From assembly GCA_049974095.1 (NCBI GenBank), contig JBMFJD010000012.1, forward strand, positions 2,723 to 17,999: 15,277 bases of DNA. Reading direction: 5' to 3'. Below are positions 747 through 15,131 of this stretch, piece by piece (the first letter of the stretch is position 1; each line of letters begins with the position of its first letter). The translations under genes and the position numbers were made by a program. The DNA is from Nanopusillaceae archaeon. Lineage in GTDB: Archaea > Nanobdellota > Nanobdellia > Nanobdellales > Nanobdellaceae. The notes under the pieces are model-generated. The model made no database searches and was not told where the DNA came from. It worked only from the letters and a program-made list of their open reading frames with translations.

Positions 747-1001
747 ATGGATTTAAGCAAACCATATTGGGTAATTAGATGCCCACATTGTGGTAGATAT
801 CTATCATATTTTGTAATAAAGGAGGGTAAAAAGAAAACAAAGAAGTGTCCTTATTGTAAAAAAACAATCGTAATATTTGATGGAAAGAATCCATCTTGGT
901 CTGTTGTTAAAGAAACGTTTGATAATCCAAAAGATGCAGTAGAATATGTAAAACAAAAAAATAAAGAATTTATTACAGGACTATCATCTAAATTATCCTA
1001 A
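747..1001 (+). CDS. Zinc-ribbon protein (CxxC...CxxC), 84 aa
   Basis: The pairs CPHCG and CPYCK, 20 residues apart, form a four-Cys zinc ribbon, followed by a basic region. The 3' end overlaps the convergent 1024-aa gene by 9 nt. Confidence 0.7.
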   Translation: MDLSKPYWVIRCPHCGRYLSYFVIKEGKKKTKKCPYCKKTIVIFDGKNPSWSVVKETFDNPKDAVEYVKQKNKEFITGLSSKLS

Positions 1002-4000
1002 GTATTTTCTACGTGCGTAATACCAACCTACCAATACTATACCAACACCTGCTGCTACAAAGATTCCATATATAGATAATGGTGTAGTAGATGATGAAGT
1101 AGTACTATATGCTGTTGGTACAGATACTGATGGTGTTGATGTTGTAGGAGCTGGAGTAGGAGCTGTAGTTGTTGGGGTAGGGGAAGGAGTGGGTGAAGGT
1201 GATGGAGAAGATGATTGAGTTGGTATGGTATATTGTAATGGTGCTGTTGGTGTAGTTAATAACATACTTACTGGTGTTGGAGTTAAGTTTAATGCAGATA
1301 ATACATAGATATCTGTTTCTGTAGTTGATGTATTACTATTGTATAGTGTACAATCTATTAAGTATCCTTCTGGAAAACACTCTTGTATTATGTCTACATC
1401 TAATGACATATATTGATAATATGGCCACAATTGTATGTATGAATATTGTCCTGACGCTGGGGATATTTCTAATTCGTCCTGTGCTCCATATACTACAGAT
1501 GCATAATTTATAAATGAAAAATTCTCAATAGTTAACATCGAATATATACTATTATTACTTGGGTTTGCGAACGCTACCGGAATATAACCTGTCTCTCCTA
1601 ATCCTATATATGATGGTGAACTTATATTAGATCCAAATGTATCCAACATTGATGATTGATTTATTAGATTTAATATTATGTTATCCCCTTGTACTGTGTA
1701 ATTATATATATTCATGTTAATACATGTATATTGCATATTGTTATAATTTAGCATTGCATTATATCCTATAACATATTCTCCATTTACTAAAATATTACTT
1801 TCAGGTACTATTGTAGATAAGTTTCCAACAATTAATATTGATACTTGTTTTCCTGCTATATCTGCAACAGTCATACTTACAACATCGTCATAATACTCTA
1901 TATTGCTTACAGTCATAAAGCTAGCAATTTCAGTACCATTTATTAAAGTAAAGATTTGTCCAGTAGCTTTATTTATTGCAAATATAAATAGATATTGGTT
2001 TCCATTTGTTGATTGACCTGTATCAAATATTATATATACATAATCTTTTGTTTCTACAACATATATTGGAAAATTAATATCAACATACATTGGATTATAT
2101 GGTTGTGAATAACCACTATTTATAGATATTACTGGTATATTACCTTGTGTTATATTAAGTATTGTCTCTACTTCGCCAGTTGATGTATTCATAAAGTCTC
2201 CAGCATATATAGTATAGTTATCTACTTCCACATAATAATTACTATAGTAAGGTACATTAGGATTATATATACTAGAGACTAATTGAGGAGAGGAAATGTT
2301 ATTACCTGTTACTGTTATTTCATACAATAAATAGTTATTTGTAGTTGAGAATGGCAATGATATATAAGCAGTATCATTATATTCATAGGCAAATATATTA
2401 CCAAAAATAGGATATGCTTCATCTAAGGTATATCCTTGATTTGTTAAGTTTTGTACTAAACTAGATATATTCTCTGATGCTACTAGTCCTCCAGTTATGT
2501 TAAATAAACTTACTAATTGTGGATATTCTGTACCAATAACTGCTAGCATATATGGACTATTATTGTAAGTATATGGATATACATAGAATACGTTTACTCC
2601 AGATAGAGATGATTGATCGAATGTTACATTAAATATATGTAATAGATATGCTGTAAAGTTGGTATAATTGAATTGTTGTGGATAACATGTTGGTACTTGA
2701 GCAGGAACTGTATAATATATTTGAGTTGGAGTTGGAGTTAATGGTTGTCCAGATACTACATATATCGTTGTATTTCCATTACCAGTACATGTTATTAAAT
2801 AATTATCTGCTACACAATAAGCATCAAATGCCATATAACCTACAGAATCATTTACAATATTAAAGTCAAATAGATGAAAACTTGGACCTCCAGAAAATGC
2901 TATTGGCCCAAATAAGAAAATATCTGATCCATTATAATAGATTGGAGTAACTGGGTGTATATTTCCAGGAAGTAGCTCGGCAGAATTAAAGTTTGGTACT
3001 ATAAATAAATTAGAATTATTATACACATATGGAGAACAATAGAATGTATCATTAGTTATATTAAAGGTAAAAACAGAAATAGATAAATTTTGATAAACAG
3101 AGAGCTGTCCATAATAATTATCATATATCCAACCAGGATACTCACCAAAGGTACTACAATAAGTTGCAGATAAATTATATAAAGTGGTATTTACAATAAT
3201 GTCATCCCAATCGGGAGTGTTTACAGCAATTGCATAATCATTTGGATAATATGTTGATAAATATGCTGGATATCCATATAAACTATTCGTATTATTGTAA
3301 AATATATAGAGTTGACCATTATTAAGATTTATATCAGCAAGAGAGAATATGCCACCACTATATGATCCATAATCTATATAAATATTATTTGCTGTTGGAG
3401 AAACCGTATAAAGACCATAGATGGGAACAGATAAATTCAATAATAAAGTACCATTTGGGGAATATATTCCTAAACTTGAGATTATATATTGATTATTTTC
3501 TGGAGTATTTATGAAATATATATTTGATAGGTCTCCACTTATGGTAGCATTAGATACTAATTGAGGTGAAGAAATATTATTACCATTTACAGTTATTTGA
3601 TATAAATATAAGCTAGTATATGAACCTGTATAGAATGACTCTGAATATTGGTAGAATGGTATATCTATATATGCTGTATTATTATATTCATAGATGAATA
3701 TATTACCAGAAGCTCTACCACCAGTTGCTGTAAAACTACCAGTAGTATAACCTAGATTAATTAAGTATTGTACTAAACTAGAAATATCCTCTGATGCTAC
3801 TAATCCTCCGGTAATATTAAATAAATCGACAGAGAGTGGATAATTAGAACCCAATACAGTCAAAATATAAGGAGTACCGTTATAAGTATATTGACTTACA
3901 GCAAAAACATTTGTACCATTATAAGTAAATGTATTAAAAGTAAAATTTAGTACTGGTATAACATATACCGACATGTTCGTCACGGTTAATTCATTTTGTG

Positions 4001-4067
4001 AGAACACCGGTATTCCTAGTATACCTAAACCTAAAAGAGACAATATAAGTATCTTTCTTTTATCCAT
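993..4067 (-). CDS. Large membrane-anchored surface glycoprotein, 1024 aa: signal peptide, two homologous ~439-aa modules, Ser/Thr/Pro stalk, C-terminal TM anchor
   Basis: The N-terminus MDKRKILILSLLGLGILGIPVFSQ is a Sec-type signal. I hand-counted about 20 N-X-S/T sequons in the first ~445 residues. The stalk SSSPSPSPTPSPTPTTTAPTPAPTTSTPS maps to nt ~1080-1217. The C-terminal hydrophobic helix IYGIFVAAGVGIVLVGWYY plus the basic tail ARRKYLG maps to nt ~993-1073. Confidence 0.9.
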   Translation of the reverse strand: MDKRKILILSLLGLGILGIPVFSQNELTVTNMSVYVIPVLNFTFNTFTYNGTNVFAVSQYTYNGTPYILTVLGSNYPLSVDLFNITGGLVASEDISSLVQYLINLGYTTGSFTATGGRASGNIFIYEYNNTAYIDIPFYQYSESFYTGSYTSLYLYQITVNGNNISSPQLVSNATISGDLSNIYFINTPENNQYIISSLGIYSPNGTLLLNLSVPIYGLYTVSPTANNIYIDYGSYSGGIFSLADINLNNGQLYIFYNNTNSLYGYPAYLSTYYPNDYAIAVNTPDWDDIIVNTTLYNLSATYCSTFGEYPGWIYDNYYGQLSVYQNLSISVFTFNITNDTFYCSPYVYNNSNLFIVPNFNSAELLPGNIHPVTPIYYNGSDIFLFGPIAFSGGPSFHLFDFNIVNDSVGYMAFDAYCVADNYLITCTGNGNTTIYVVSGQPLTPTPTQIYYTVPAQVPTCYPQQFNYTNFTAYLLHIFNVTFDQSSLSGVNVFYVYPYTYNNSPYMLAVIGTEYPQLVSLFNITGGLVASENISSLVQNLTNQGYTLDEAYPIFGNIFAYEYNDTAYISLPFSTTNNYLLYEITVTGNNISSPQLVSSIYNPNVPYYSNYYVEVDNYTIYAGDFMNTSTGEVETILNITQGNIPVISINSGYSQPYNPMYVDINFPIYVVETKDYVYIIFDTGQSTNGNQYLFIFAINKATGQIFTLINGTEIASFMTVSNIEYYDDVVSMTVADIAGKQVSILIVGNLSTIVPESNILVNGEYVIGYNAMLNYNNMQYTCINMNIYNYTVQGDNIILNLINQSSMLDTFGSNISSPSYIGLGETGYIPVAFANPSNNSIYSMLTIENFSFINYASVVYGAQDELEISPASGQYSYIQLWPYYQYMSLDVDIIQECFPEGYLIDCTLYNSNTSTTETDIYVLSALNLTPTPVSMLLTTPTAPLQYTIPTQSSSPSPSPTPSPTPTTTAPTPAPTTSTPSVSVPTAYSTTSSSTTPLSIYGIFVAAGVGIVLVGWYYARRKYLG
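1263..3995 (-). repeat. Internal two-fold duplication of the large glycoprotein (period ~1317 nt / 439 aa), diverged
   Basis: LFNITGGLVASEDISSLVQ (from aa 82) matches LFNITGGLVASENISSLVQ (from aa 521). YEYNNTAYIDIPF matches YEYNDTAYISLPF, and ITVNGNNISSPQLVS matches ITVTGNNISSPQLVS. Both modules end with a Cys-containing segment followed by LTPTPT or LTPTPV. The DNA also matches at 3775-3810 versus 2455-2490. Confidence 0.75.
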
Positions 4068-4149: not shown

Positions 4150-4542
4150 TTAGGGATTTTCTATCGATAACTTCTTGAGCATCTCATCTATGAATTTCCC
4201 TTGCATCAATGTATCACGATCTTTTAACTCACCAATCATCTCACCAATAGAAAACTTATATACTAAATTACCATTTTCTCTTGTAAGGTATACTTCTGTA
4301 CCATATAAATTAGGGTCATTAGAGGAATAATATAATCTAAGTTTTTCATTAAATGGTACTGTAACTACCATATCTGAAGATAAAACATTATCTACTACAT
4401 CAAATGTAAATTTTGCTTGTACGTTGTTTGGCAATCTTATCTTAATTATACACCATTCAAGATCTTGATACCAATCCTTACCTATTACCTCATATCTTTT
4501 AGCCACATTATTTGCTATTTGGTAGCATGTTTCCTTATCCAT
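4150..4542 (-). CDS. Hypothetical cytoplasmic protein, 130 aa
   Basis: ATG ORF with no signal peptide. It sits directly upstream of the large glycoprotein gene on the same strand. It has N- and C-terminal helices around a beta-rich core and weakly resembles the 124-aa and 145-aa proteins. Confidence 0.65.
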   Translation of the reverse strand: MDKETCYQIANNVAKRYEVIGKDWYQDLEWCIIKIRLPNNVQAKFTFDVVDNVLSSDMVVTVPFNEKLRLYYSSNDPNLYGTEVYLTRENGNLVYKFSIGEMIGELKDRDTLMQGKFIDEMLKKLSIENP

Positions 4543-5072: not shown

Positions 5073-5240
5073 TTAGAAATCTTCTCGTATTTTATCTAAT
5101 AGTTCATAATATCTTTCACCTAGATATTTTCTTAGTAGGAATTTTATCCCGACATTATATGATCTAAATTTTTCCTCACTAATGAGAATATCTAATAACT
5201 TCTTTGTATCTTCAGTTATAATAATTCTATATCGTTTCAT
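5073..5240 (-). CDS. Small ribbon-helix-helix-like (CopG/Arc type) putative transcription regulator, 55 aa from the internal ATG (track start 5264 is probably over-extended)
   Basis: MKRYRIIITEDTKKLLDILISEEKFRSYNVGIKFLLRKYL fits a strand-helix-turn-helix RHH pattern. The ATG at 5238-5240 leaves a 50-bp divergent promoter, whereas the track start leaves only 8 bp. Confidence 0.5.
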   Translation of the reverse strand: MKRYRIIITEDTKKLLDILISEEKFRSYNVGIKFLLRKYLGERYYELLDKIREDF

Positions 5241-5290
5241 AGATAAATATTGTATATAACACATATAAATATTTGTTAGAACATATTATA
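5241..5290. promoter_or_regulatory. Divergent promoter region between the RHH-like gene and the coiled-coil/Hjc-like operon
   Basis: CATATAAAT (about 5261-5270) reads as a TATA box on both strands. It is centred about 25-26 nt from both the minus ATG (5240) and the plus ATG (5291). Confidence 0.4.
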
Positions 5291-5596
5291 ATGGATGAAG
5301 AATTGAAGAAATATTTAGATGAAATTAATTCTAAACTTGACAGGATTTTGGAATTATTAACATTAAAACCCGCTAGTGATATAGAAGAAGAAAGTGAAAA
5401 TAAAAATGTAGAAGCTGAGGTTGAAGAATTTGAGAATGAATTATTAAATGAAATTAAAGAAAAAGGATGGCAATTTGTATATAAAAGTTATTTAGTGAAA
5501 AGATTACAAGAAAAAGGATTATCATTTGATGATTTTATAAAATATAGTAGATTATTCTACGAAAAAGAAAAAGATAAATTTTATCCAGTAGAATGA
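5291..5596 (+). CDS. Hypothetical protein, 101 aa from ATG (track uses TTG at 5273): N-terminal coiled-coil helix, acidic linker, C-terminal small helical (possibly winged-helix) domain
   Basis: The domains read MDEELKKYLDEINSKLDRILELL, then the EEESENKNVEAEVEEFENE acidic tract, then KGWQFVYKSYLVKRLQEKGLSFDDFIKY. The stop overlaps the next start (ATGA at 5593-5596). Confidence 0.65.
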   Translation: MDEELKKYLDEINSKLDRILELLTLKPASDIEEESENKNVEAEVEEFENELLNEIKEKGWQFVYKSYLVKRLQEKGLSFDDFIKYSRLFYEKEKDKFYPVE

Positions 5597-5892
5597 ATAG
5601 ATATAAAATAGGTTATAGATATGAAAGGAAGGTTATTGAAGAATTAAGAGAAAAAGGATATTTTACAGTAAGGACTCCTGCATCTCACACACCTATAGAT
5701 ATTATAGCAATAAATGATAAGGGAGAAGTATTATTGATACAGGTTAAGAAGAGAAAAGATAATAATATACCAAAGGATGTTATTGAAGAATTAGAAGAAT
5801 TTGCTAAATTCTTTAAAGATGCTAATAATGTAAAGATATTATTATATTTCTTTGGAAAAGATGGAAAAAAAGTTATAGAAATAAAAAACTAG
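5593..5892 (+). CDS. hjc: Short Holliday junction resolvase (Hjc-family, PD-(D/E)xK fold) homologue, 99 aa, with Gln at the catalytic Glu position
   Basis: IGYRYERKVIEELREKGYFTVRTPASHTPIDIIAINDKGEVLLIQVKKRKD aligns by eye with the Hjc core pattern G-x3-ER-x6-LR-x-KG-x3-R-x-PAS...P-DIIA...L-I-E-x-K-x-RK. That gives E11, D36, Q50 (CAG at 5740-5742) and K52. Confidence 0.8.
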   Translation: MNRYKIGYRYERKVIEELREKGYFTVRTPASHTPIDIIAINDKGEVLLIQVKKRKDNNIPKDVIEELEEFAKFFKDANNVKILLYFFGKDGKKVIEIKN

Positions 5893-6326
5893 GAATAAGA
5901 CAATCTTTGTAATAATGTTATTATATTATTAACTGCCGATGAATTTATATTATCTTCATCTATTCTTATAAATGCCTGTACATACTGATTCTGACCATTT
6001 AATGGGGGATAATACCTTAATGATATTTCATCAATATCTACTAATCTAGGATTTCTAACAGATATAAATTCATTACCTGTAACATTACCAGATATTTCTT
6101 GAGTTATGTATATTCCTGATCTTACACTTGGATATGTTGTTTCATATATAAATCTAAATTCTCCATTTATTACTCTATTCTTATTAGAATTTCTATAAGT
6201 AACTTTTACTGTACATGCTTTGAGGTACTCAAAGTTATACTCTACAGTATATCCAAACCTATTTAATGATGTCCTGAAGTCATCCGCTAGTTTTCTACAG
6301 TCTTCTACATTATCTATTACGGTCAT
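5889..6326 (-). CDS. Hypothetical cytoplasmic protein, 145 aa, translationally coupled to the last gene of the glycoprotein array
   Basis: Its start overlaps the family-A stop as TAATG at 6324-6328. No signal peptide. The 3' end overlaps the convergent Hjc-like gene at CTAG (5889-5892). Confidence 0.7.
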   Translation of the reverse strand: MTVIDNVEDCRKLADDFRTSLNRFGYTVEYNFEYLKACTVKVTYRNSNKNRVINGEFRFIYETTYPSVRSGIYITQEISGNVTGNEFISVRNPRLVDIDEISLRYYPPLNGQNQYVQAFIRIDEDNINSSAVNNIITLLQRLSYS

Positions 6327-7405
6327 TATGAGTTTGCAGGAGTATATTCGAGGTATATAGCATTTAAAGCAGCACCAAAGTAGCTAATTGCAAAACCAGA
6401 TACAGTTATAGAGGATATTTCATTATATTGATTTGGGTCTGCTCCATTATTTATTAATACTTGTCTTAGATCATAAAATCCTGGAGTAAGGTATATATTA
6501 CAATCACTAAAATATGCCGACAATGTACTAACAATACATACATTAACACTACTATTAGTAGAGGGGTTTGTTATGCTATAAACAACATACATAAACGAAA
6601 AAGTAGCATATGGCGCAGACATAGGATTAGCACCAATTATTACGGGATATGATGGGTTATAGTATACATTTAAAGTTCTAATCATAGCTCCATTAGGTGC
6701 TATACCATTACCTGCCCATATAGTTCTAGTAGAATCATATGGAGCAGCAGTAAATACGCCACCATTCCCACACCAACCACCGTCCAAGGTTGTATTTGTA
6801 CCACAGTAAGGTTGATATGGTCCTTGTATAGAGTTACCAGCAAAAAGAAATGGAGATGGATAATATATATATAAATAATATGTTCCATTACTGAATATTC
6901 CACAACTTCCAGTTCCAGAACCTATAACAATTTCAAATGTTTGAGGTAAACCAGTAACATTATCATAGGATAATACATTCGATCGATATTGATATTCGGT
7001 CCAATATGAATATACGCCAGGATCTGTATTTGGACAAAGATTAATTAGTTGACCATTAGAGTTTGTTATTGCTACTACAGCGGGCCATGCAAATTCACAT
7101 TCTGAAGCATTTATTGAGGTAACATAAGGATCATAAGTCTTACAATATTGAAGTTGTTGTTGTAATACTTGTTCGGGAACTGTAAATTTAATAATTTGTA
7201 AATTTGCAGATGTAAATGCTTTAGATATATTAAAAACCCCAACTAATTGTGTAGTAAAAGTTGGGATACAAACACTATTCATACAAAAATATTGCCACAT
7301 AGGTTGAGGTGATTGAGAATATATTTTGTAAGGTAATATTAATAATAATAATAAAGGGAGTATGTATAATATCTTTCTCATAATATTATATTTGTTATAT
7401 ATCAT
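6326..7405 (-). CDS. Secreted putative glycoprotein, family A, copy A1 (359 aa; 351 aa if started at the second ATG, 7381)
   Basis: Signal peptide MRKILYILPLLLLLILPYKIYSQ. Family-A motifs are FTVPEQVLQQQLQYCKTYDPY, YDNVTGLPQTFEI, YIYYPSPF, DGGWCG and GADPNQYNEI. Many N-X-S/T sequons and no C-terminal anchor. Confidence 0.9.
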   Translation of the reverse strand: MIYNKYNIMRKILYILPLLLLLILPYKIYSQSPQPMWQYFCMNSVCIPTFTTQLVGVFNISKAFTSANLQIIKFTVPEQVLQQQLQYCKTYDPYVTSINASECEFAWPAVVAITNSNGQLINLCPNTDPGVYSYWTEYQYRSNVLSYDNVTGLPQTFEIVIGSGTGSCGIFSNGTYYLYIYYPSPFLFAGNSIQGPYQPYCGTNTTLDGGWCGNGGVFTAAPYDSTRTIWAGNGIAPNGAMIRTLNVYYNPSYPVIIGANPMSAPYATFSFMYVVYSITNPSTNSSVNVCIVSTLSAYFSDCNIYLTPGFYDLRQVLINNGADPNQYNEISSITVSGFAISYFGAALNAIYLEYTPANS

Positions 7406-7412
7406 TATAAAA
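7379..7412 (-). promoter_or_regulatory. Conserved 5' module, copy 1 of 6 (TATA box TTTATAA + 24-nt spacer + second ATG) for A1
   Basis: The sense strand reads TTTTATAATGATATATAACAAATATAATATTATG. The TATA box is centred about 27 nt upstream of the ATG at 7379-7381. Confidence 0.45.
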
Positions 7413-8906
7413 CTAAGCTATATAGAAACCTAATTGACCTCCATATAGATTTACCTGTAGTCCCAATGGAGTTTGTTGATACATTACAGAACCATTAGTA
7501 TAGATATTCAACAATGAATAATATCCTGACTCTTGAAGATTTACGAAATAGTTGAATACAGAGGATGGTTGACTAAAATCACTGTATGTATTATTAGTTA
7601 CAAATAAATATAGTATAGTAGGTACCATTGAAGTTACTTGTGGGATATTAACAAATATTAGTGCTGAACCATAATTTTGATAATACTGATTATCAAAAAA
7701 GTATGGTAATAATTGATAAGTATTTAATCCGGGGTTATATTCCATGATAATAAAGTTATTTGAAGATATATTTATTCCATAGGCTTGTTGTAAATATTGA
7801 TTATCTATTAATATTGGAAATACTGCATTAGAGACAGTATTATGTGGAAAGATATAAATGGGGATAGCGTATAAGAATCTAACGGATCTAGTATATGATG
7901 TTAATGTGGGGGTACCAATAGAGTAAGAATATGCACCTATAGGAGGAGTTACTCCATATACGTATACAAAGTTCTGATTAGGATTCCAAGTAAATATTGC
8001 TATTGCGGTTTTGTATTGAGGATAACTATCAACTATTTGAATATCATAAGTGGATTGAGTAGGTTGGAATTGTAGATTAATAAAGTTTCTACTTCCATAA
8101 TCTACTCCATTAACTGTAATATCATTTGGAACATAATTAGGTATATTTGGAATTGTATTATTTGGACCAATTAGGTATGGATATATTAATAATTGTATTG
8201 GGATGGAACCTATAGCTACAGCTACTGCATTTACTGTTTTAGTATTACTAGTGGTTGTTACTGTATAGTTGGTTATTTGAACGTTAACATCACTTTGATA
8301 TATTTCTGGAGAAGTAAAATTTAATATACCAATGCTAAAATTGGTATCTTGGGTTATTTGATCACTATAGGATAAAGCATTTAGAGATATAGTATAAGAG
8401 AAATTAAGATATGGGGAAGATTGATCATTTTGAGTAGCAATATATATTGTATTTAAACCTGGAAAGAGATTTGGTAGAGCATTATTAAAGAAACATACAG
8501 ATGACGTACAAGAATATGTAATATTATTAACATTATTTGTATCTACCCATATATCAGTAGGACCTGATCCATAAACAGTTAATAATATTTGACCTCCATT
8601 TTGTAATAAAAATTGATATAAAGTAGGATCAATAGATATATTAGATTCTACAATAAATAATGTATCATTGGGATAATATTGCCATTCATTACCTGTATAT
8701 GATACATTAAAGGGTTGAAATGTTACATTTGGATTAGGAACAGAAACACTATTTAAGGTTCCTACTGTTGCATTATACATAGAAGTTATGTTAATATAAT
8801 ATACATCTGCTGTTTGAGGAAATATTCTATAGGATAGTACTATTAGAGGTAATAATGATAATAGGTATAATATCCTTCTCATATTATTATATTTGTTATA
8901 TATCAT
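7413..8906 (-). CDS. Secreted putative glycoprotein, family B, copy B1 (497 aa)
   Basis: Signal peptide MRRILYLLSLLPLIVLSYRIFPQ. The N-terminal domain runs YYINITSMYNATVG...NEWQYYPNDTLFIVE...GLNTIYIATQN. The C-terminal half EIYQSDVNVQITNYTV...NLYGGQLGFYIA is highly conserved. I hand-counted only about 5 Lys/Arg in the mature protein. Confidence 0.9.
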   Translation of the reverse strand: MIYNKYNNMRRILYLLSLLPLIVLSYRIFPQTADVYYINITSMYNATVGTLNSVSVPNPNVTFQPFNVSYTGNEWQYYPNDTLFIVESNISIDPTLYQFLLQNGGQILLTVYGSGPTDIWVDTNNVNNITYSCTSSVCFFNNALPNLFPGLNTIYIATQNDQSSPYLNFSYTISLNALSYSDQITQDTNFSIGILNFTSPEIYQSDVNVQITNYTVTTTSNTKTVNAVAVAIGSIPIQLLIYPYLIGPNNTIPNIPNYVPNDITVNGVDYGSRNFINLQFQPTQSTYDIQIVDSYPQYKTAIAIFTWNPNQNFVYVYGVTPPIGAYSYSIGTPTLTSYTRSVRFLYAIPIYIFPHNTVSNAVFPILIDNQYLQQAYGINISSNNFIIMEYNPGLNTYQLLPYFFDNQYYQNYGSALIFVNIPQVTSMVPTILYLFVTNNTYSDFSQPSSVFNYFVNLQESGYYSLLNIYTNGSVMYQQTPLGLQVNLYGGQLGFYIA

Positions 8907-8913
8907 TATAAAA
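8880..8913 (-). promoter_or_regulatory. Conserved 5' module, copy 2 of 6, for B1
   Basis: Same TTTTATAATGATATATAACAAATATAATAATATG-type sequence as the other copies; second ATG at 8880-8882. Confidence 0.45.
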
Positions 8914-8939
8914 TATTAGTTTATGAAATATGATTAATA

Positions 8940-9962
8940 CTAGGTTTCAGGTATATACTGGAGAATCATACCATAAACAGACATCTCTGAAGCACCACTA
9001 ACACTTGAATTTGGAAATATTTTTATATTAACAATTTCATTCCATTGATTAGGATCTAGACCATTTTGAAGTTCTAATGATCTAAGATCATATATAGCAT
9101 TAGAATATGGTATATATATTGTTCGATTTTGGTCGGTATATGGATTTTTTATGGTTATATATCCATATACAGAAGGAGATAGCGAACCTATGAGTACTGG
9201 ATAAAATGGATTAAATCTTACATATAAATATCTGGTTATATTCACATTACCCATTAAACCACCAAAATAATAAAGTATCTGAGAATATGGGTATCTATAA
9301 TGACTGCTTATATAATCTATATAAGATGACCCAAATCCACCCGTATCTGAACACCAACCACCATCGAAATCCGAAGATGTTATATTTGATAGATTAGAGG
9401 GACATTGTATAAGGTACGTAAGGTTTGACATAGATTCAAAAGAATAATAAAATGGAGATGGGTAGTATACATATATATAATATGTACCTGGACTCAGAGA
9501 ACCTATATCTATCTCAAATGTTTGAGGTAAACCTGTAGTATTATCATAAGAAATAGGTATTGTATAATAAGGTATTTGATACTGAACTAAAGAGAGACTA
9601 GAATCATATAAAGCAACTAACGCAGGGTAAGCAAAATCACATTGGGATAAATTTATTGATGTAATATATGGATCATAGGTTTTACAATAATATAGTTGTT
9701 GTTGTAATACTTGTTTGGGAACTGTAAAAGTAATAGATATTAAATTATTTGATTTGGTTATATTAAGTTGATATACTAACTGAGTAGTATATAGAGGAAG
9801 ATTAGTCCCCCAAAGAGATCTATTTTCAACGACTACCCCAACAGGACCTGCCTCAGGCCAAATAGGTGATTGAGAATATACTTTGTAAGGTAATATTACT
9901 AATAACAATAGTGGTAGTATATAAAATATCTTTCTCATAATATTATATTTGTTATTCATCAT
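8940..9962 (-). CDS. Secreted putative glycoprotein, family A, copy A2 (340 aa)
   Basis: Signal peptide MRKIFYILPLLLLVILPYKVYSQ. Motifs are FTVPKQVLQQQLYYCKTYDPYITSINLSQC, YDNTTGLPQTFEI, YVYYPSPF, DGGWC and LELQNGLDPNQWNEIVNI. Confidence 0.9.
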   Translation of the reverse strand: MMNNKYNIMRKIFYILPLLLLVILPYKVYSQSPIWPEAGPVGVVVENRSLWGTNLPLYTTQLVYQLNITKSNNLISITFTVPKQVLQQQLYYCKTYDPYITSINLSQCDFAYPALVALYDSSLSLVQYQIPYYTIPISYDNTTGLPQTFEIDIGSLSPGTYYIYVYYPSPFYYSFESMSNLTYLIQCPSNLSNITSSDFDGGWCSDTGGFGSSYIDYISSHYRYPYSQILYYFGGLMGNVNITRYLYVRFNPFYPVLIGSLSPSVYGYITIKNPYTDQNRTIYIPYSNAIYDLRSLELQNGLDPNQWNEIVNIKIFPNSSVSGASEMSVYGMILQYIPET

Positions 9963-9969
9963 TATAAAA
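9936..9969 (-). promoter_or_regulatory. Conserved 5' module, copy 3 of 6, for A2
   Basis: The sense strand reads TTTTATAATGATGAATAACAAATATAATATTATG, identical to the B2 copy; second ATG at 9936-9938. Confidence 0.45.
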
Positions 9970-11985
9970 TTAGGATATATAGAAACCTAATTGGCCTCCA
10001 TATAAGTTAGCCTGTAATCCCAATGGTGTTTGTTGATACATTACTGAACCATTGGTGTAGATATTCAGTAATGAATAATATCCTGACTCTTGAAGATTTA
10101 CGAAATAGTTGAATACAGAGGATGGTTGACTAAAATCACTATATGTATTATTAGTTACAAATAAATATAGTATAGTAGGTACCATCGAGGTAACTTGTGG
10201 TACATTAACAAATATTAATGCGGATTCATAGTTTTGATAATATTGATTATCAAAGAAGTATGGAAGTAATTGATAAGTATTTAACCCTGGATTGTATTGC
10301 ATTATAATAAAGTTATTTGAAGATATATTAACACCGTAATTTTGTTGTAAGTATTGATTATCTATTAATAGTGGGAATACTGCATTAGAGACAGTATTAT
10401 GTGGGAATATGTATATTGGGATGGCGTATAAGAAACCTACTGATTTTGTATATGATGTTAACGTAGGAGTACCTATTGAATATGAGTATGTGCCAGGTAA
10501 GGGTGTAACACCAGGCGTTACACTATATACATATACAAAGTTTTGATTAGGATTCCAGGTAAATATTGCTATTGCGGTTTTGTATTGAGGATAACTATCA
10601 GTTATCTGGATATTATATGTTGATTGCGTGGGAACAAAATTTAGATTAATGAAATTAGCACTGCTATAGTATATTCCATTAATTATAATTTGATTTGGAA
10701 CATAATTAGTTATACTAGGAAATTCTCCATTAGGACCAATAAGAAATGCGTACAATAATAAAGGCACTGGTATAGAACCAGTAGCTACAGCTACGGCATT
10801 TACTGTTTTAGAAGTATTAGTAATTGTTACTGTATAGTTTGTTATTTGAACGTTAACATCACTTTGATATATTTCTGGAGGTGTAAGATTAACTATGTCA
10901 ATACTAAAGTTAATATCTTGATTTATAGATAAAGCAAGATTATGTAGATTATCAGAGATAGTATAACCAAAATTAAAAATTATAACTGGTAGTTGATTTT
11001 CAACAACAATATATATTGTATTTAAACCTGGAGAGAGGTTTAGTGGAACACTATAGTAATTATACATATTATAATAACTATAGGTGACATTACTTACATT
11101 ATTTGTATCTACCCATATATAGGTAGGACCTGATCCATAAACAGTTAATAATATTTGACCCCCATTTTGTAATAAAAATTGATATAGATTGGGATCTATA
11201 GTTATATTAGTTTCTACAATAAATAATGTATCATTGGGATAATATTGCCATTCATTACCTGTATATGATACATTAAAGGGTTGAAATGTTACATTTGGAG
11301 GTAAGGAAGTAATACTGGATAAGTCGCCTACTGTTGCATTATACATAGAGGTTATATTAATGTAGTATATACCTGGTGGCGGAGGATAGGACGTAAGGTT
11401 CGATAAATTAATACTAAGGTTTGTATCATTAAGTATTTGAACACTATAAGAGTAGATACTTATAGATATATTATAAAATAAGACAAAATATACGGAAGAT
11501 TGTTGATTTTGAGTAGCAATATATATTGTGTTTAAACCTGGAGCGAGATTTAGTGGAACATTATTAAAGGAACCTATAGGCATTGTAGATGAATATGTAA
11601 CATTACTTACATTATTTGTATCTACCCATATATAGGTAGGACCTGATCCATAAACAGTTAATAATATTTGACCCCCATTTTGTAATAAAAATTGATATAG
11701 ATTGGGATCTATAGTTATATTAGTTTCTACAATAAATAATGTATCATTGGGATAATATTGCCATTCATTACCTGTATATGATACATTAAAGGGTTGAAAT
11801 GTTACATTAGGAGGTAAGGATGTAATACTGGATAAGCTACCATTTGTTACATTATACATAGAGGTTATATTAATGTAGTATATACCTTCAGTTTGTGGGT
11901 ATATCCTATACGATAGTACTACTAGAAATAATATAGGTAATAGGTATAATATCTTTCTCATAATATTATATTTGTTATTCATCAT
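9970..11985 (-). CDS. Secreted putative glycoprotein, family B, copy B2 (671 aa), with its N-terminal domain tandemly duplicated
   Basis: Same signal peptide and C-terminal half as B1 and B3. The GIYYINITSMYN... domain occurs at aa 34 and again at aa 205. Confidence 0.9.
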   Translation of the reverse strand: MMNNKYNIMRKILYLLPILFLVVLSYRIYPQTEGIYYINITSMYNVTNGSLSSITSLPPNVTFQPFNVSYTGNEWQYYPNDTLFIVETNITIDPNLYQFLLQNGGQILLTVYGSGPTYIWVDTNNVSNVTYSSTMPIGSFNNVPLNLAPGLNTIYIATQNQQSSVYFVLFYNISISIYSYSVQILNDTNLSINLSNLTSYPPPPGIYYINITSMYNATVGDLSSITSLPPNVTFQPFNVSYTGNEWQYYPNDTLFIVETNITIDPNLYQFLLQNGGQILLTVYGSGPTYIWVDTNNVSNVTYSYYNMYNYYSVPLNLSPGLNTIYIVVENQLPVIIFNFGYTISDNLHNLALSINQDINFSIDIVNLTPPEIYQSDVNVQITNYTVTITNTSKTVNAVAVATGSIPVPLLLYAFLIGPNGEFPSITNYVPNQIIINGIYYSSANFINLNFVPTQSTYNIQITDSYPQYKTAIAIFTWNPNQNFVYVYSVTPGVTPLPGTYSYSIGTPTLTSYTKSVGFLYAIPIYIFPHNTVSNAVFPLLIDNQYLQQNYGVNISSNNFIIMQYNPGLNTYQLLPYFFDNQYYQNYESALIFVNVPQVTSMVPTILYLFVTNNTYSDFSQPSSVFNYFVNLQESGYYSLLNIYTNGSVMYQQTPLGLQANLYGGQLGFYIS
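10861..11886 (-). repeat. In-frame tandem duplication, 2 x 513 bp (171 aa), inside B2
   Basis: A long, near-identical DNA block occurs twice, from about 11101 to 11296 and from about 11614 to 11809. ATTTGTATCT begins at 11101 and again at 11614, an offset of 513. Protein aa 55-132 and aa 226-303 are identical. Confidence 0.9.
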
Positions 11986-11992
11986 TATAAAA
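11959..11992 (-). promoter_or_regulatory. Conserved 5' module, copy 4 of 6, for B2
   Basis: Same sequence as the A2 copy; second ATG at 11959-11961. Confidence 0.45.
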
Positions 11993-13483
11993 TTAGGATA
12001 TATAGAATCCTAATTGGCCTCCATATAAGTTAGCCTGTAATCCAAGTGGAGTTTGTTGATACATTACTGATCCATTGGTATAGATATTCAGTAATGAGTA
12101 ATATCCCGATTCTTGTAAGTTTACGAAATAGTTGAATACAGAGGATGGTTGACTAAAATCACTATATGTACTATTAGTTACAAATAAATACAATATTGTT
12201 GGGACCATTGATGTAACTTGAGGAATATTAACAAATATTAATGCAGGTCCGTAGTTTTGATAATATTGATTATCAAAGAAGTATGGAAGTAATTGATAAT
12301 TATTTAACCCTGGATTGTATTGCATTATTATGAAATTGTTTGAAGATATATTAACACCGTAATTTTGTTGTAAGTATTGATTATCTATTAATAGTGGGAA
12401 TACTGCATTAGAGACAGTATTATGTGGAAATATATAAATGGGTATTGCATATAAGAATCTAACGGATCTAGTATAAGATGTTAATGTTGGGGTACCTATC
12501 GAATAAGAATATGAACCTACTAGTGGCGTTATACCATAGACATATACAAAGTTTTGATTAGGATTCCAAGTAAATATTGCTATTGCTGTTTTATATTGAG
12601 TATAGTTATCTGTTATCTGAATATCGTAAATAGATTGGTTTGGTACAAAATCCAGATTAATAAAACTTACACTTCCGTAATTTACTCCATTAACTATAAT
12701 ATCACTTGGAACATAATTAGTTATATTAGCAATAGTACCATTTGGATCAATTAGGTATGGATATAGTAATAATTGTATTGGGATAGAACCAGTAGCTACA
12801 GCTACCGCATTTACTATTTTAGTATTATTAGTAATTGTTACTGTATAGTTGGTTATTTGGACATTAACATCACTTTGATATATTTCTGGAGAAGTAAGAT
12901 TTAGTATACCAAAACTAATGTTTGTATCTTGAGTTATCTGAGCACTATATGAGAAACCATTTAGAGATATAGTATAAGAGAAATTAAGATATGAAAATGA
13001 TTGTTGATTTTGAGTAGCAATATATATTGTATTTAAACCTGGAGAGAGATTCAGTGGAATAGTAGTAGAACATGAAGACGAATTACAAGAATATGTAACA
13101 TTATTGATATTATTTGTATTAGCCCATACATAAGTAGGACCTGATGGAGAAACATCTAGATATGTTATACCACCACTCTTTGTAAAAAGTTGATATATGG
13201 TAGGATCAATAGTTATATTAGACTCTACAATAAATAATGTATCATTTGGATAATATTGCCATTCATTACTATCATATGAGACATTAAAGGGTTGGAATAC
13301 TACATTGGGAGGTAAGGAAGTAATGTTAGATAAATTACCTACTGTTGCATTATACATAGAGGTTATGTTGATATAATATACACCTGCTGTTTGTGAGTAT
13401 ACTCTATAAGAGAGTACTAATAATAATAATAGTGGAAGTATGTACAATATCTTTCTCATAATATTATATTTGTTATATATCAT
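11993..13483 (-). CDS. Secreted putative glycoprotein, family B, copy B3 (496 aa)
   Basis: Signal peptide MRKILYILPLLLLLVLSYRVYSQ. Collinear with B1 over its full length, and its C-terminal ~150 aa are nearly identical to those of B2. Confidence 0.9.
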   Translation of the reverse strand: MIYNKYNIMRKILYILPLLLLLVLSYRVYSQTAGVYYINITSMYNATVGNLSNITSLPPNVVFQPFNVSYDSNEWQYYPNDTLFIVESNITIDPTIYQLFTKSGGITYLDVSPSGPTYVWANTNNINNVTYSCNSSSCSTTIPLNLSPGLNTIYIATQNQQSFSYLNFSYTISLNGFSYSAQITQDTNISFGILNLTSPEIYQSDVNVQITNYTVTITNNTKIVNAVAVATGSIPIQLLLYPYLIDPNGTIANITNYVPSDIIVNGVNYGSVSFINLDFVPNQSIYDIQITDNYTQYKTAIAIFTWNPNQNFVYVYGITPLVGSYSYSIGTPTLTSYTRSVRFLYAIPIYIFPHNTVSNAVFPLLIDNQYLQQNYGVNISSNNFIIMQYNPGLNNYQLLPYFFDNQYYQNYGPALIFVNIPQVTSMVPTILYLFVTNSTYSDFSQPSSVFNYFVNLQESGYYSLLNIYTNGSVMYQQTPLGLQANLYGGQLGFYIS

Positions 13484-13490
13484 TATAAAA
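13457..13490 (-). promoter_or_regulatory. Conserved 5' module, copy 5 of 6, for B3
   Basis: Same module; second ATG at 13457-13459. Further upstream, 13491-13509 matches 8914-8932 (the region upstream of B1). Confidence 0.45.
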
Positions 13491-13543
13491 TATTGGTTTA
13501 TGAAATATATAGAATATTATGTAGTATTACTTATGCAATATAT

Positions 13544-14602
13544 CTATGTTTGAGGAACATAAATTAAAGAAAAACCATATATATGTACCACACTAGTATG
13601 AATCGAGCCACTTATACTTATATTAACAATTTCATTCCATTGATTAGGATCTAAACCATTTTGAAGTTCTAATAATCTAAGATCGTATAAAGGTCCACCG
13701 GAGAATGTTATAGTTTTGGTTTGACCTGTAGATGGATTCATTACAGTAACTGAACCTTGATCGTATCCAGAACTATCTAAAGCATAAAAAAGATAAAATA
13801 ATAGGTATCCGATCATAACAGGGTACGATGGATTAAATTTCACATAAAGATATCTAGTCAATATAAAGTTACCATCATATCCTCCACTTAGAGATACGCC
13901 CCATGGATAATAATACTCAAAAAAGTAATATGATGTATACATACCTCCACACCAGCCACCATTGAAATCATAAGAAGATACATTTGTAAGGTTAAAGGGA
14001 CATGATGAAATATTAGAACTAGTTAACGAATATATAGAATAGAAGGATGGACCTGGATAATATACATATAAATAAAAAGAATTATTTAGGTTGTAAAATA
14101 AAGGAGATTCATAATTTGTACCGAGAAAGATCGCAAATGTATTAGGTAGTCCCGTTGTGTTGTCATAATCAATAGGGATTATTTGTCCTTTTGAATAAAC
14201 AATATTATATGCATTTGGATTATTATATATATCTATAGCCGGTGAGCTATATAAAACAGCAATTATTGGATATGCGAAAACACATTGAGATAGGTTTATT
14301 GATGTAATATATGGATCATAGGTTTTACAATAGTATAGTTGTTGTTGTAATACTTGTTCAGGAACTGTAAAGGTAATAATTTGAATATTTGAAGAATTAA
14401 AACCATCAGGTAGATTGAATGCATAAACTAACTGACTCAAATATAAGGGAATACTTGCAGATCCACTAATATAGCCACTTTTAGAAAATGTAGGCCAAAC
14501 AGGTTGTAGAGAATATACATTGTATATGAACGATACTTCTGGTAATAGGAAGAGTAATAAATAGAGAATTCTCCTCATAATATTATATTTGTTATATATC
14601 AT
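13544..14602 (-). CDS. Secreted putative glycoprotein, family A, copy A3 (352 aa), first gene of the array
   Basis: Signal peptide MRRILYLLLFLLPEVSFIYNVYS. Motifs are FTVPEQVLQQQLYYCKTYDPYITSINLSQC, YDNTTGLPNTFAI, YVYYPGPS, NGGWCG and LELQNGLDPNQWNEIVNI. Confidence 0.9.
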   Translation of the reverse strand: MIYNKYNIMRRILYLLLFLLPEVSFIYNVYSLQPVWPTFSKSGYISGSASIPLYLSQLVYAFNLPDGFNSSNIQIITFTVPEQVLQQQLYYCKTYDPYITSINLSQCVFAYPIIAVLYSSPAIDIYNNPNAYNIVYSKGQIIPIDYDNTTGLPNTFAIFLGTNYESPLFYNLNNSFYLYVYYPGPSFYSIYSLTSSNISSCPFNLTNVSSYDFNGGWCGGMYTSYYFFEYYYPWGVSLSGGYDGNFILTRYLYVKFNPSYPVMIGYLLFYLFYALDSSGYDQGSVTVMNPSTGQTKTITFSGGPLYDLRLLELQNGLDPNQWNEIVNISISGSIHTSVVHIYGFSLIYVPQT

Positions 14603-14609
14603 TATAAAT
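14576..14609 (-). promoter_or_regulatory. Conserved 5' module, copy 6 of 6, for A3
   Basis: The sense strand reads TTTATAATGATATATAACAAATATAATATTATG; second ATG at 14576-14578. Confidence 0.45.
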
Positions 14610-14897
14610 ACTTATAATAAAAATGTATTATGGAATACCGGTGCAAGGTTCAAAGATATAAATATAGATATTTTTCATATAGGAAAGGTTATAGTAGTTA
14701 GATTTGAGAATATAAAATATATACCAGCATATAACTTTTTCGAAAAGTATAAGGATAAGGTAGATGCATTTATCACAGTATCTTCAGGGAGAATGAGTGG
14801 TTATTTAGTTATAAAAGCTGCATAAGCGATATCAAAAGAAACTGATAAAAAAGTTATAGCAATTGTAGCAGATAATTATGAAAAATATAGAAAATAG
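14589..14897 (+). pseudogene. Possible gene remnant: reading frame with no ATG start, interrupted by an in-frame TAA
   Basis: The track ORF starts at TTG inside the A3 promoter module and has no in-frame ATG near its 5' end. After the TAA at 14823-14825 the same frame continues as AISKETDKKVIAIVADNYEKYRK to the TAG at 14895-14897. Confidence 0.25.
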
Positions 14898-14909
14898 AAA
14901 AAAGAAGGT

Positions 14910-15131
14910 CTAGTGAGAGAAAGCTGCTCTTAATCCTTCAGCCCATCTATTAGCTAATTCTGGTGCCATTGAACTCATTACAATTGAATAGTTCTTTGCT
15001 GGTGTTGAATTACAAGCTGCATCTCCTACACCTAAGAAAGCTCCTACATCTCTACAATATTTTTGTGCTGTTTCTGGTCTGGATACTCCCTGTTGGTATT
15101 TTGTCTTTGCGTAATCTAATGTTTTGACCAT
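14910..15131 (-). CDS. Small Ala/Gly-rich hypothetical protein, 73 aa, compositionally distinct from its neighbours
   Basis: ATG ORF with TTTATAAAA about 24 nt upstream (minus strand, about 15151-15159). It is visibly more GC-rich than the surrounding genes. Family not recognised. Confidence 0.65.
   Translation of the reverse strand: MVKTLDYAKTKYQQGVSRPETAQKYCRDVGAFLGVGDAACNSTPAKNYSIVMSSMAPELANRWAEGLRAAFSH

Follow-up and report, generated by a model that had tools for sequence, protein, structure and literature searches.

The array and its repeated module

The window analysed here, a stretch of 15,277 nucleotides (nt) from contig JBMFJD010000012.1 with a G+C content of 28%, carries six consecutive open reading frames (ORFs) on its minus strand. 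They are of two kinds, A and B, in the order A1-B1-B2-A2-B3-A3, and each is headed by a nearly identical module of non-coding DNA and leader codons, which is the subject of this work. The source lineage is Nanopusillaceae (Nanoarchaeota, DPANN), represented by a metagenome-assembled genome: in a homologue search the six array products were 100% identical to the NCBI proteins ACP5GJ_04000 to ACP5GJ_04025, annotated as 'Nanopusillaceae archaeon'. Looking up the exact protein sequences of window ORFs, whichever ATG was taken as the start, gave no record. An archaeal Hjc resolvase and a ParB-N protein adjoin the array. The longest ORF of each gene opens with one ATG (ATG1) and has a second one (ATG2) eight codons further on. 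The predicted promoter modules and the coding sequences (CDS) counted from ATG2 are listed below (aa, amino acids), starting from A1, the first gene of the array.

14579..14609, minus strand: A1 promoter module, with the TATA box ATTTATAAT at 14601-14609 and the proximal block AAATATAATATT at 14579-14590
13544..14578, minus strand: A1 CDS from ATG2, 344 aa (longest ORF 14602-13544); signal peptide MRRILYLLLFLLPEVSFIYNVYS; NCBI ACP5GJ_04025, equal to the ORF minus 8 codons
13460..13490, minus strand: B1 promoter module, TATA box at 13482-13489, proximal block at 13460-13471
11993..13459, minus strand: B1 CDS from ATG2, 488 aa (longest ORF 13483-11993); signal peptide MRKILYILPLLLLLVLSYRVYSQ; NCBI ACP5GJ_04020, 100% identical
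11962..11992, minus strand: B2 promoter module, TATA box at 11984-11991; the whole 31-nt spacer after the B1 stop codon
9970..11961, minus strand: B2 CDS from ATG2, 663 aa (longest ORF 11985-9970); NCBI ACP5GJ_04015
9939..9969, minus strand: A2 promoter module, TATA box at 9961-9968; the whole 31-nt spacer after the B2 stop codon
8940..9938, minus strand: A2 CDS from ATG2, 332 aa (longest ORF 9962-8940); NCBI ACP5GJ_04010
8883..8913, minus strand: B3 promoter module, TATA box at 8905-8912; the end of the 57-nt A-to-B spacer
7413..8882, minus strand: B3 CDS from ATG2, 489 aa (longest ORF 8906-7413); NCBI ACP5GJ_04005
7382..7412, minus strand: A3 promoter module, TATA box TTTATAAT at 7404-7411, ATG1 at 7403-7405, proximal block at 7382-7393; the whole 31-nt spacer after the B3 stop codon, and the originally predicted element less its ATG
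6326..7381, minus strand: A3 CDS from ATG2, 351 aa (longest ORF 7405-6326); signal peptide MRKILYILPLLLLLILPYKIYSQ; NCBI ACP5GJ_04000, 100% identical
5889..6326, minus strand: 145-aa gene, the downstream neighbour of the array, conserved in every relative

The alignment of the six 5' regions confirmed that all six predicted copies of the module are present, all on the minus strand. The module comprises an almost invariant TTTATAATGAT..ATAACAAATATAATATT-ATG-AG followed by a hydrophobic leader, and its 20-mer AACAAATATAATANTATGAG occurs six times without mismatch, compared to a mean of 0.02 in 200 dinucleotide-preserving shuffles. Outside the lineage the 20-mer gave 21 matches (one genome per species searched), all of them single chance matches in AT-rich bacteria. 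The letters first proposed for the module need amending in two copies: B3 reads ...ATAATAAT before its ATG, not ...ATATT (a single change in the proximal block, AAT in place of ATT), and A1 begins with ATTTATAA, not TTTTATAA. A spacer of about 31 nt had been expected for each gene. This is the length of the three spacers that follow a B gene (7382-7412, 9939-9969 and 11962-11992), not of the two A-to-B spacers, which are 57 nt (8883-8939) and 84 nt (13460-13543) long.

Identity between the 5' regions drops sharply at the gene bodies. In A-versus-B pairs the nucleotide identity is 82-100% at positions -34..-1 (counted from ATG2), 77-90% over codons 1-10 and 58-76% over codons 11-21 (the codon figures from five of the six copies, A1 left out); past nucleotide 64 it is down to 20-41%, the random level for such a composition. 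The signal peptide of A1 is more diverged, sharing 9-12 of 23 residues and differing by a one-codon indel, hence the proposed near-identity of the signal peptides applies to the other five copies only. The mature A and B proteins are unrelated, as had been proposed: when an A alignment of 16 members was compared by hhalign with a B alignment of 7 members, only residues 1-24, the signal peptide, matched, in agreement with BLASTP.

Eight further copies were found in relatives, giving a set of 14 from five contigs, 13 of them alignable. Across the alignable copies, positions -30..-26 are invariant, positions -21..-13 are variable, and the proximal block at -12..-1 (AAATATAATATT) is almost invariant, while positions -36..-31 are set by the upstream gene and read CTTAGT, CCTAAT, CAATAT or TAAGTA according to the type of junction.

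Start codons and predicted promoters

The original prediction held that the proteins begin at MRK and that ATG1 lies inside a TATA box. The box TTTATAAT is indeed found at -30..-23 of ATG2 in all six copies, and on comparative and statistical evidence MRK is the most likely N-terminus. ATG2 is unchanged in 14 of 14 copies, while ATG1 is lost or out of frame in three of them. In the syntenic locus of a JGI metagenome (3300039096, hereafter L001) the B gene reads TTTATAATGATATGTAGCAAAATATAGTACT-ATG, where a 1-nt insertion takes ATG1 out of the reading frame and runs it into a TAG; 24 nt ahead of ATG2 there is also an in-frame TGA. This leaves ATG2 as the sole possible start of that gene. In two further contigs, L028 (from an NCBI metagenome assembly; gene at 846) and L030 (gene at 288), a TTG stands in place of ATG1, both copies reading TTTTATATTGCT, and the box is still A/T-rich. 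A B homologue with 41% identity, on contig L002, lacks an upstream ATG and carries TTTTTATATA at an equal distance.

The sequence contexts of the two codons point the same way. With a weight matrix trained on 44 other genes of the lineage (training median 7.5; 99th percentile of all ATGs 9.5), ATG2 of the six copies scored between 7.9 and 11.9 and ATG1 between -11.4 and 4.7; the respective values are 7.9 and -1.7 for A1, 11.9 and 4.7 for B1, 9.5 and -9.4 for A2, and 10.2 and -11.4 for A3. The stretch between the two ATGs gives no sign of coding constraint, albeit by a weak test: its variable columns are distributed 3/3/3 over the codon positions, with nine sites in all and a signal-peptide control that is also aperiodic. 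Changes in the eight codons mostly alter the residue (MIYNKYNI, MMNNKYNI, MMIHNKYNI, MMTYNKYNI and MMNSKYNI).

The start-codon reading is already known in practice, since public annotation uses ATG2. The longest ORFs exceed the six NCBI products (351, 489, 332, 663, 488 and 344 aa, from A3 back to A1) by exactly 8 residues each, and the JGI gene calls in the relatives likewise start at ATG2. The proposed overextension by eight codons is therefore correct for a track of longest ORFs and does not apply to the NCBI and JGI calls. That the NCBI calls are already right would be accounted for by the use of GeneMarkS-2 in its pipeline. This gene finder has an explicit model of a promoter box some 26 nt away from leaderless archaeal starts (PMC6028130).

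The spacing between TATA box and ATG that is seen in the array is a rule in this lineage. TATA-like 8-mers (TTTAWAWA, at least 7 of 8 positions) pile up at -31..-27 in 23 of 45 other genes taken from the window, L001 and L025 (a contig with a second A locus, described below), compared to 7.9% of all ATGs, and in 32 of 44 other genes there is a T at -1 and, in the same number, an A at -3. All copies of the module have T at -1 and A at +1, a pyrimidine/purine initiator. G is absent from -13..-1 in every window copy, thus a Shine-Dalgarno sequence is lacking; the closest GGAGG lies some 55 nt upstream, within a B coding sequence. The TATA distance of the six copies (-30..-23) has ATG2 as its reference point in place of a mapped start site, and no tRNA genes, by which the TATA-to-start distance might be calibrated, are present.

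This geometry fits the archaeal TATA promoter and leaderless mRNA of the original prediction, and it has precedents. Nanoarchaeum equitans has promoters 26-27 nt upstream of its tRNA genes and makes leaderless transcripts (PMC10100707), and in Nanoarchaeota Shine-Dalgarno genes are few and the upstream signal is of the leaderless type (PMC5397173). As in the leaderless promoters of Sulfolobus, haloarchaea and the tRNA genes of N. equitans, the predicted start has an A/T-rich 8-bp box centred some 26-27 nt upstream of it, with pyrimidine at -1, purine at +1, no Shine-Dalgarno sequence and the start codon at the predicted 5' end of the RNA. Nothing essential differs from those promoters, the start sites here being predicted ones. 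Two features are peculiar to the array: an in-frame ATG is part of the box, and the module fills the whole spacer at three junctions, so that any B recognition element (BRE) would have to lie inside the last codons of the preceding gene.

We consider it likely, from the conservation and statistics described above, that each of the six genes has its own leaderless core promoter, that the module is kept by selection and that translation starts from MRK. Each gene would have the TATA box TTTATAAT at -30..-23 of ATG2, a variable middle part and the G-free proximal block AAATATAATATT at -12..-1. RNA polymerase would most likely start at, or within one nucleotide of, the A of ATG2, yielding a leaderless mRNA that is translated from MRK. 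That ATG1 exists would be an accident of how the TATA box is spelled (TTTATAATG), and it would be in frame and open solely because the TATA-to-start spacing is fixed at a multiple of three. The identical control and export signals suggest that A and B are made and exported together. We infer the position of the transcription start, as well as the use of each internal promoter, the secretion of the products and a joint function of A and B.

Several observations weigh against this interpretation. B1 has an 8-mer matching the TATA consensus at 7 of 8 positions about 30 nt upstream of ATG1 too, and the codon-position test is underpowered, with just 9 variable sites. Positions -36..-31, where a purine-rich BRE would lie, are unconserved among the copies; in the lineage weight matrix, A is only weakly enriched at -39..-33. 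In four related contigs the box at the B-to-A junction is TTTATGAT. This form agrees with the consensus in 6 of 8 positions and brings in another in-frame ATG, and the promoter at those junctions may be weak. Finally, the internal spacers lack a T-run terminator, containing only the TTTT of the TATA box, which makes read-through transcripts likely alongside monocistronic ones, and coupled translation probably coexists with internal initiation.

With these points taken into account, the promoter and start-codon reading appears well supported at the sequence level and would represent an ordinary archaeal organisation, leaving the current understanding of archaeal transcription unchanged. The array is a clean case of a longest-ORF start inside a TATA box. 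Taken together with relatives, the TATA-to-ATG spacing can decide which codon is the start in uncultured DPANN archaea, though the pipelines are already correct here. Given genetic tools, the near-invariant 31-nt promoter could be a portable strong promoter.

Maintenance of the module and variation of the array

The original prediction attributed the uniform 5' ends to homogenisation by gene conversion, a conclusion that the silent sites of the A and B signal peptides do not bear out. Where A and B signal peptides have the same residue, they use the same codon in 45 of 84 cases (0.54), which is at the level of chance (0.48-0.52 expected from codon usage). Within the families, the same codon is used at a rate of 0.40-0.76 for the signal peptide and 0.54-0.76 for the bodies. 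The adjoining non-coding 31 nt are 82-100% identical, even among A paralogues whose bodies have about 40% protein identity. Silent sites at chance level next to a promoter of 82-100% identity argue for purifying selection on an old shared module and not for recent conversion. A and B would share the module by common descent, and selection on the promoter and the export signal would maintain it.

The DNA immediately upstream of the module depends on the gene that precedes it: it reads ...GGAGGYCAATTAGGWTTCTATATANCNTAR after a B gene and ...CATATTTCATAAACYAATA after an A gene, and a gene of either family may follow. The window has A-to-B, B-to-A and B-to-B junctions; an A-to-A junction is found in L028 with the A-type spacer of the window, and the spacer derived from an A 3' end that stands before B3 precedes an A gene in L028. 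B2 and A2 each come after the 3' end of a B gene, and for this reason their upstream 70 nt are 97-100% identical. The DNA upstream of A1, up to about +23 of its CDS, is 89% identical and orthologous to the 5' region of the L001 B gene, after which A1 is of A type. The arrays themselves vary (B-A in L001, A-A-B-A in L028 and A-B-B-A-B-A in the window), and the same 145-aa gene and Hjc always follow. Spacers determined by the upstream gene, together with the varied order of the arrays, imply crossovers inside the module. Unequal crossing-over within the shared ~100 nt would be the simplest account of the array variation; this sequence would serve as a homology patch by which genes are amplified and reordered between strains. 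The A and B bodies (window 6326-14602 versus L001 9970-12661) are 69-75% identical and both flanks 85-89%, and by this comparison the array is a fast-evolving island.

Recurrent gene conversion, which would keep promoter and signal peptide uniform on diverging genes, has in its favour that the 5' ends are much more alike than the bodies, and that conversion seems to act in the array: the B paralogue bodies have a mosaic identity (from about 0.5 to 1.00 in 60-nt windows) that looks like patchy conversion. The match between the regions upstream of B2 and A2 might be counted on the same side, were it not that both follow a B 3' end, which points to duplication or crossover. A conversion tract over the cassette would have homogenised the silent sites, however, and these are no closer than chance between A and B, nor is the signal peptide more alike than the bodies within a family; we thus hold this explanation to be very improbable. 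The original prediction also drew a parallel to bacterial variable surface protein families, which holds in one respect and is otherwise superficial. A conserved 5' non-coding region and signal peptide on dissimilar mature proteins is the hallmark of the vsp and vpma families (PMC2268961), and the array shares it. Like the Mycoplasma vsp, vpma and vlp loci, it consists of clustered genes with a copy number and order that vary by strain, and nanoarchaeal surface proteins are known to diversify (PMC6142677). This would accord with phase or antigen variation in which a recombinase, acting at the conserved 5' region, moves one active promoter among silent genes. The vsp and vpma loci, however, have one promoter, an Xer-type recombinase, inverted orientations and lipoprotein signal peptides with a Cys, whereas the six genes of the array are all intact, run in one direction and have a TATA box each, with a signal peptide that lacks a Cys and has YSQ at its end. 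The TATA core and the proximal block are kept in the six window copies and the eight copies of relatives, and there is no silent copy. No recombinase or integrase domain was found in ten window ORFs by a Pfam scan or among the precomputed Pfam hits of the L001 genes, no inverted repeat or invertible element involves the module, and the promoter is without a homopolymer tract. A switch of this kind is exceedingly improbable.

Transcription of the array as a single polycistron, from a promoter upstream of A1 and with inert internal modules, would give ATG1 a function, as it lies 7 nt after B stop codons and could be used by termination-reinitiation. The spacers are indeed very short (31 nt) and free of oligo-T terminators. 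Coupled expression probably occurs in the array, since the 145-aa gene begins within the A3 stop codon (TAATG) and the TATA box of its L001 orthologue is gone; the four related contigs with the weakened TTTATGAT box have a pair of in-frame ATGs, 4 and 7 nt past the stop. Inert modules would nevertheless hardly be expected to keep the TATA core and the -12..-1 block in 13 of 13 alignable copies from five contigs, including A paralogues near silent-site saturation (same-codon use of 0.40-0.74 versus about 0.5 by chance). ATG1 is absent or unusable in three copies and its contexts score like random ATGs, while ATG2 never varies; at the A-to-B junctions ATG1 stands 33 and 60 nt past the stop, far for reinitiation, and the residue-altering changes in the eight-codon stretch are likewise at odds with its translation. 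A polycistron as the sole mode of expression is in our judgement rather unlikely. A further reading would give the module two roles. It would be a selected recombination patch with which an obligate episymbiont rearranges and multiplies a pair of co-expressed surface-protein families, possibly as its range of hosts shifts, and ATG1, 4-7 nt past each B stop codon, would be used for reinitiation on read-through transcripts, with ATG2 used on leaderless ones. If this reading, which we regard as unlikely, is true, each gene would have two modes of expression. The preferred reading, a separate leaderless promoter for each gene, leaves as the remaining point of interest a strain-variable array of paired orphan genes, shuffled at a shared promoter and signal-peptide module that would be selectively maintained.

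Protein families, neighbouring genes and other loci

A and B are lineage-restricted families: A had 16 matches in 5.8 billion clusters, and a profile search for B retrieved 6 proteins in 1.84 billion representatives. A metagenome scan with the A alignment added only one locus. Neither Pfam nor PHROGs gave a match to A or B, save a sub-threshold match to DUF2341 in the C-terminal part of B, and a PDB sequence search, made with the B-family profile only, found no relative. A1 is 48% identical to A2 and 40% to A3. In B2 an N-terminal domain of about 171 aa is tandemly duplicated, residues 21-190 of B1 matching residues 21-191 and 192-362 of B2.

The leader, a putative Sec-type signal peptide, has a positively charged start (MRK or MRR), 13-15 hydrophobic residues and then (Y/F)(S/P)Q, and the same leader ending is found in a neighbouring 1024-aa protein (VFSQ) and in distant A and B homologues. 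The A and B proteins have 1.7-4.5 N-X-S/T sequons per 100 aa, with 22 sequons in B1. The AlphaFold model of A3 is mostly beta-strand (predicted local distance difference test, pLDDT, 64.9), with a low-confidence helix at residues 3-15; the A model has jelly-roll or GH11/12-like matches with template-modelling (TM) scores of about 0.26-0.29 on the query, short of a functional call. The B model is of low confidence (pLDDT 55, predicted TM score 0.39), and both models are all-beta. From these features A and B are probably secreted, N-glycosylated surface proteins, and no function beyond that is assigned.

Hypothetical surface proteins of the Nanopusillus and Yellowstone single-cell genomes are similar in being unannotated and sequon-rich, with an N-terminal hydrophobic segment. 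Surface proteins of terrestrial Nanoarchaeota diversify and have a high density of non-synonymous single-nucleotide polymorphisms (PMC6142677), to which the faster evolution of the A and B bodies relative to their flanks runs parallel; that study did not describe the A and B families, their pairing or the shared promoter module. The array adds to Nanopusillaceae a hypervariable locus of two paired orphan secreted families with a copy number that varies by strain, and the A and B proteins are plausible host-contact candidates for an obligate archaeal episymbiont.

At 6326 the stop codon of A3 and the ATG of the 145-aa gene overlap (TAATG). The similarity of this gene to L001 begins 9 nt before its ATG, and the TATA box found at -29 in L001 is missing in the window; by this comparison, the gene probably depends on read-through from A3. 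On the other side, facing the array, a gene of the PALP family (pyridoxal-phosphate enzymes; 14589-14921, plus strand) is a remnant, to which the 295-aa orthologue in L001 matches only via residues 7-70 and 249-291, about 180 codons having been deleted. Three small neighbours (173-547, 4150-4542 and 5889-6326) were considered as possible paralogues of one another and rejected, as BLASTP at 1e-3 found no similarity.

The 1024-aa protein with the VFSQ leader ending is encoded at 993-4067 on the minus strand. It has 41 sequons and two halves that resemble each other, as well as a stalk rich in Ser/Thr/Pro and a membrane anchor at the C-terminus. It has no family match and is probably, judging from this layout, a surface or S-layer-like protein. 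The whole window had no match in phage and archaeal-virus records (megablast), and no Rfam family was matched.

At 5262-5294 two divergent genes are 26 nt apart, with starts at 5264 (minus strand; gene 5073-5264) and 5291 (plus strand), and the TATA box of each overlaps the ATG of the other; the start of the plus-strand partner is probably ATG 5291, not TTG 5273. The motif AACAC(A/T)TATAAATATTTGT is found again ahead of unrelated genes in L001, L025 and L028.

A second locus, represented in L024 and L025 (about 9030-12117) and in L029 (4562-6234), carries tandem A paralogues without a B gene and adjoins an MCM helicase gene. The third copy at this locus (L024, 11161) has leader-coding sequence upstream of its called start and may be frameshifted. 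The A copies there have a different conserved promoter, cTTTTAAATATGTATATTAATATTTACTAAT-ATG, with the same spacing.

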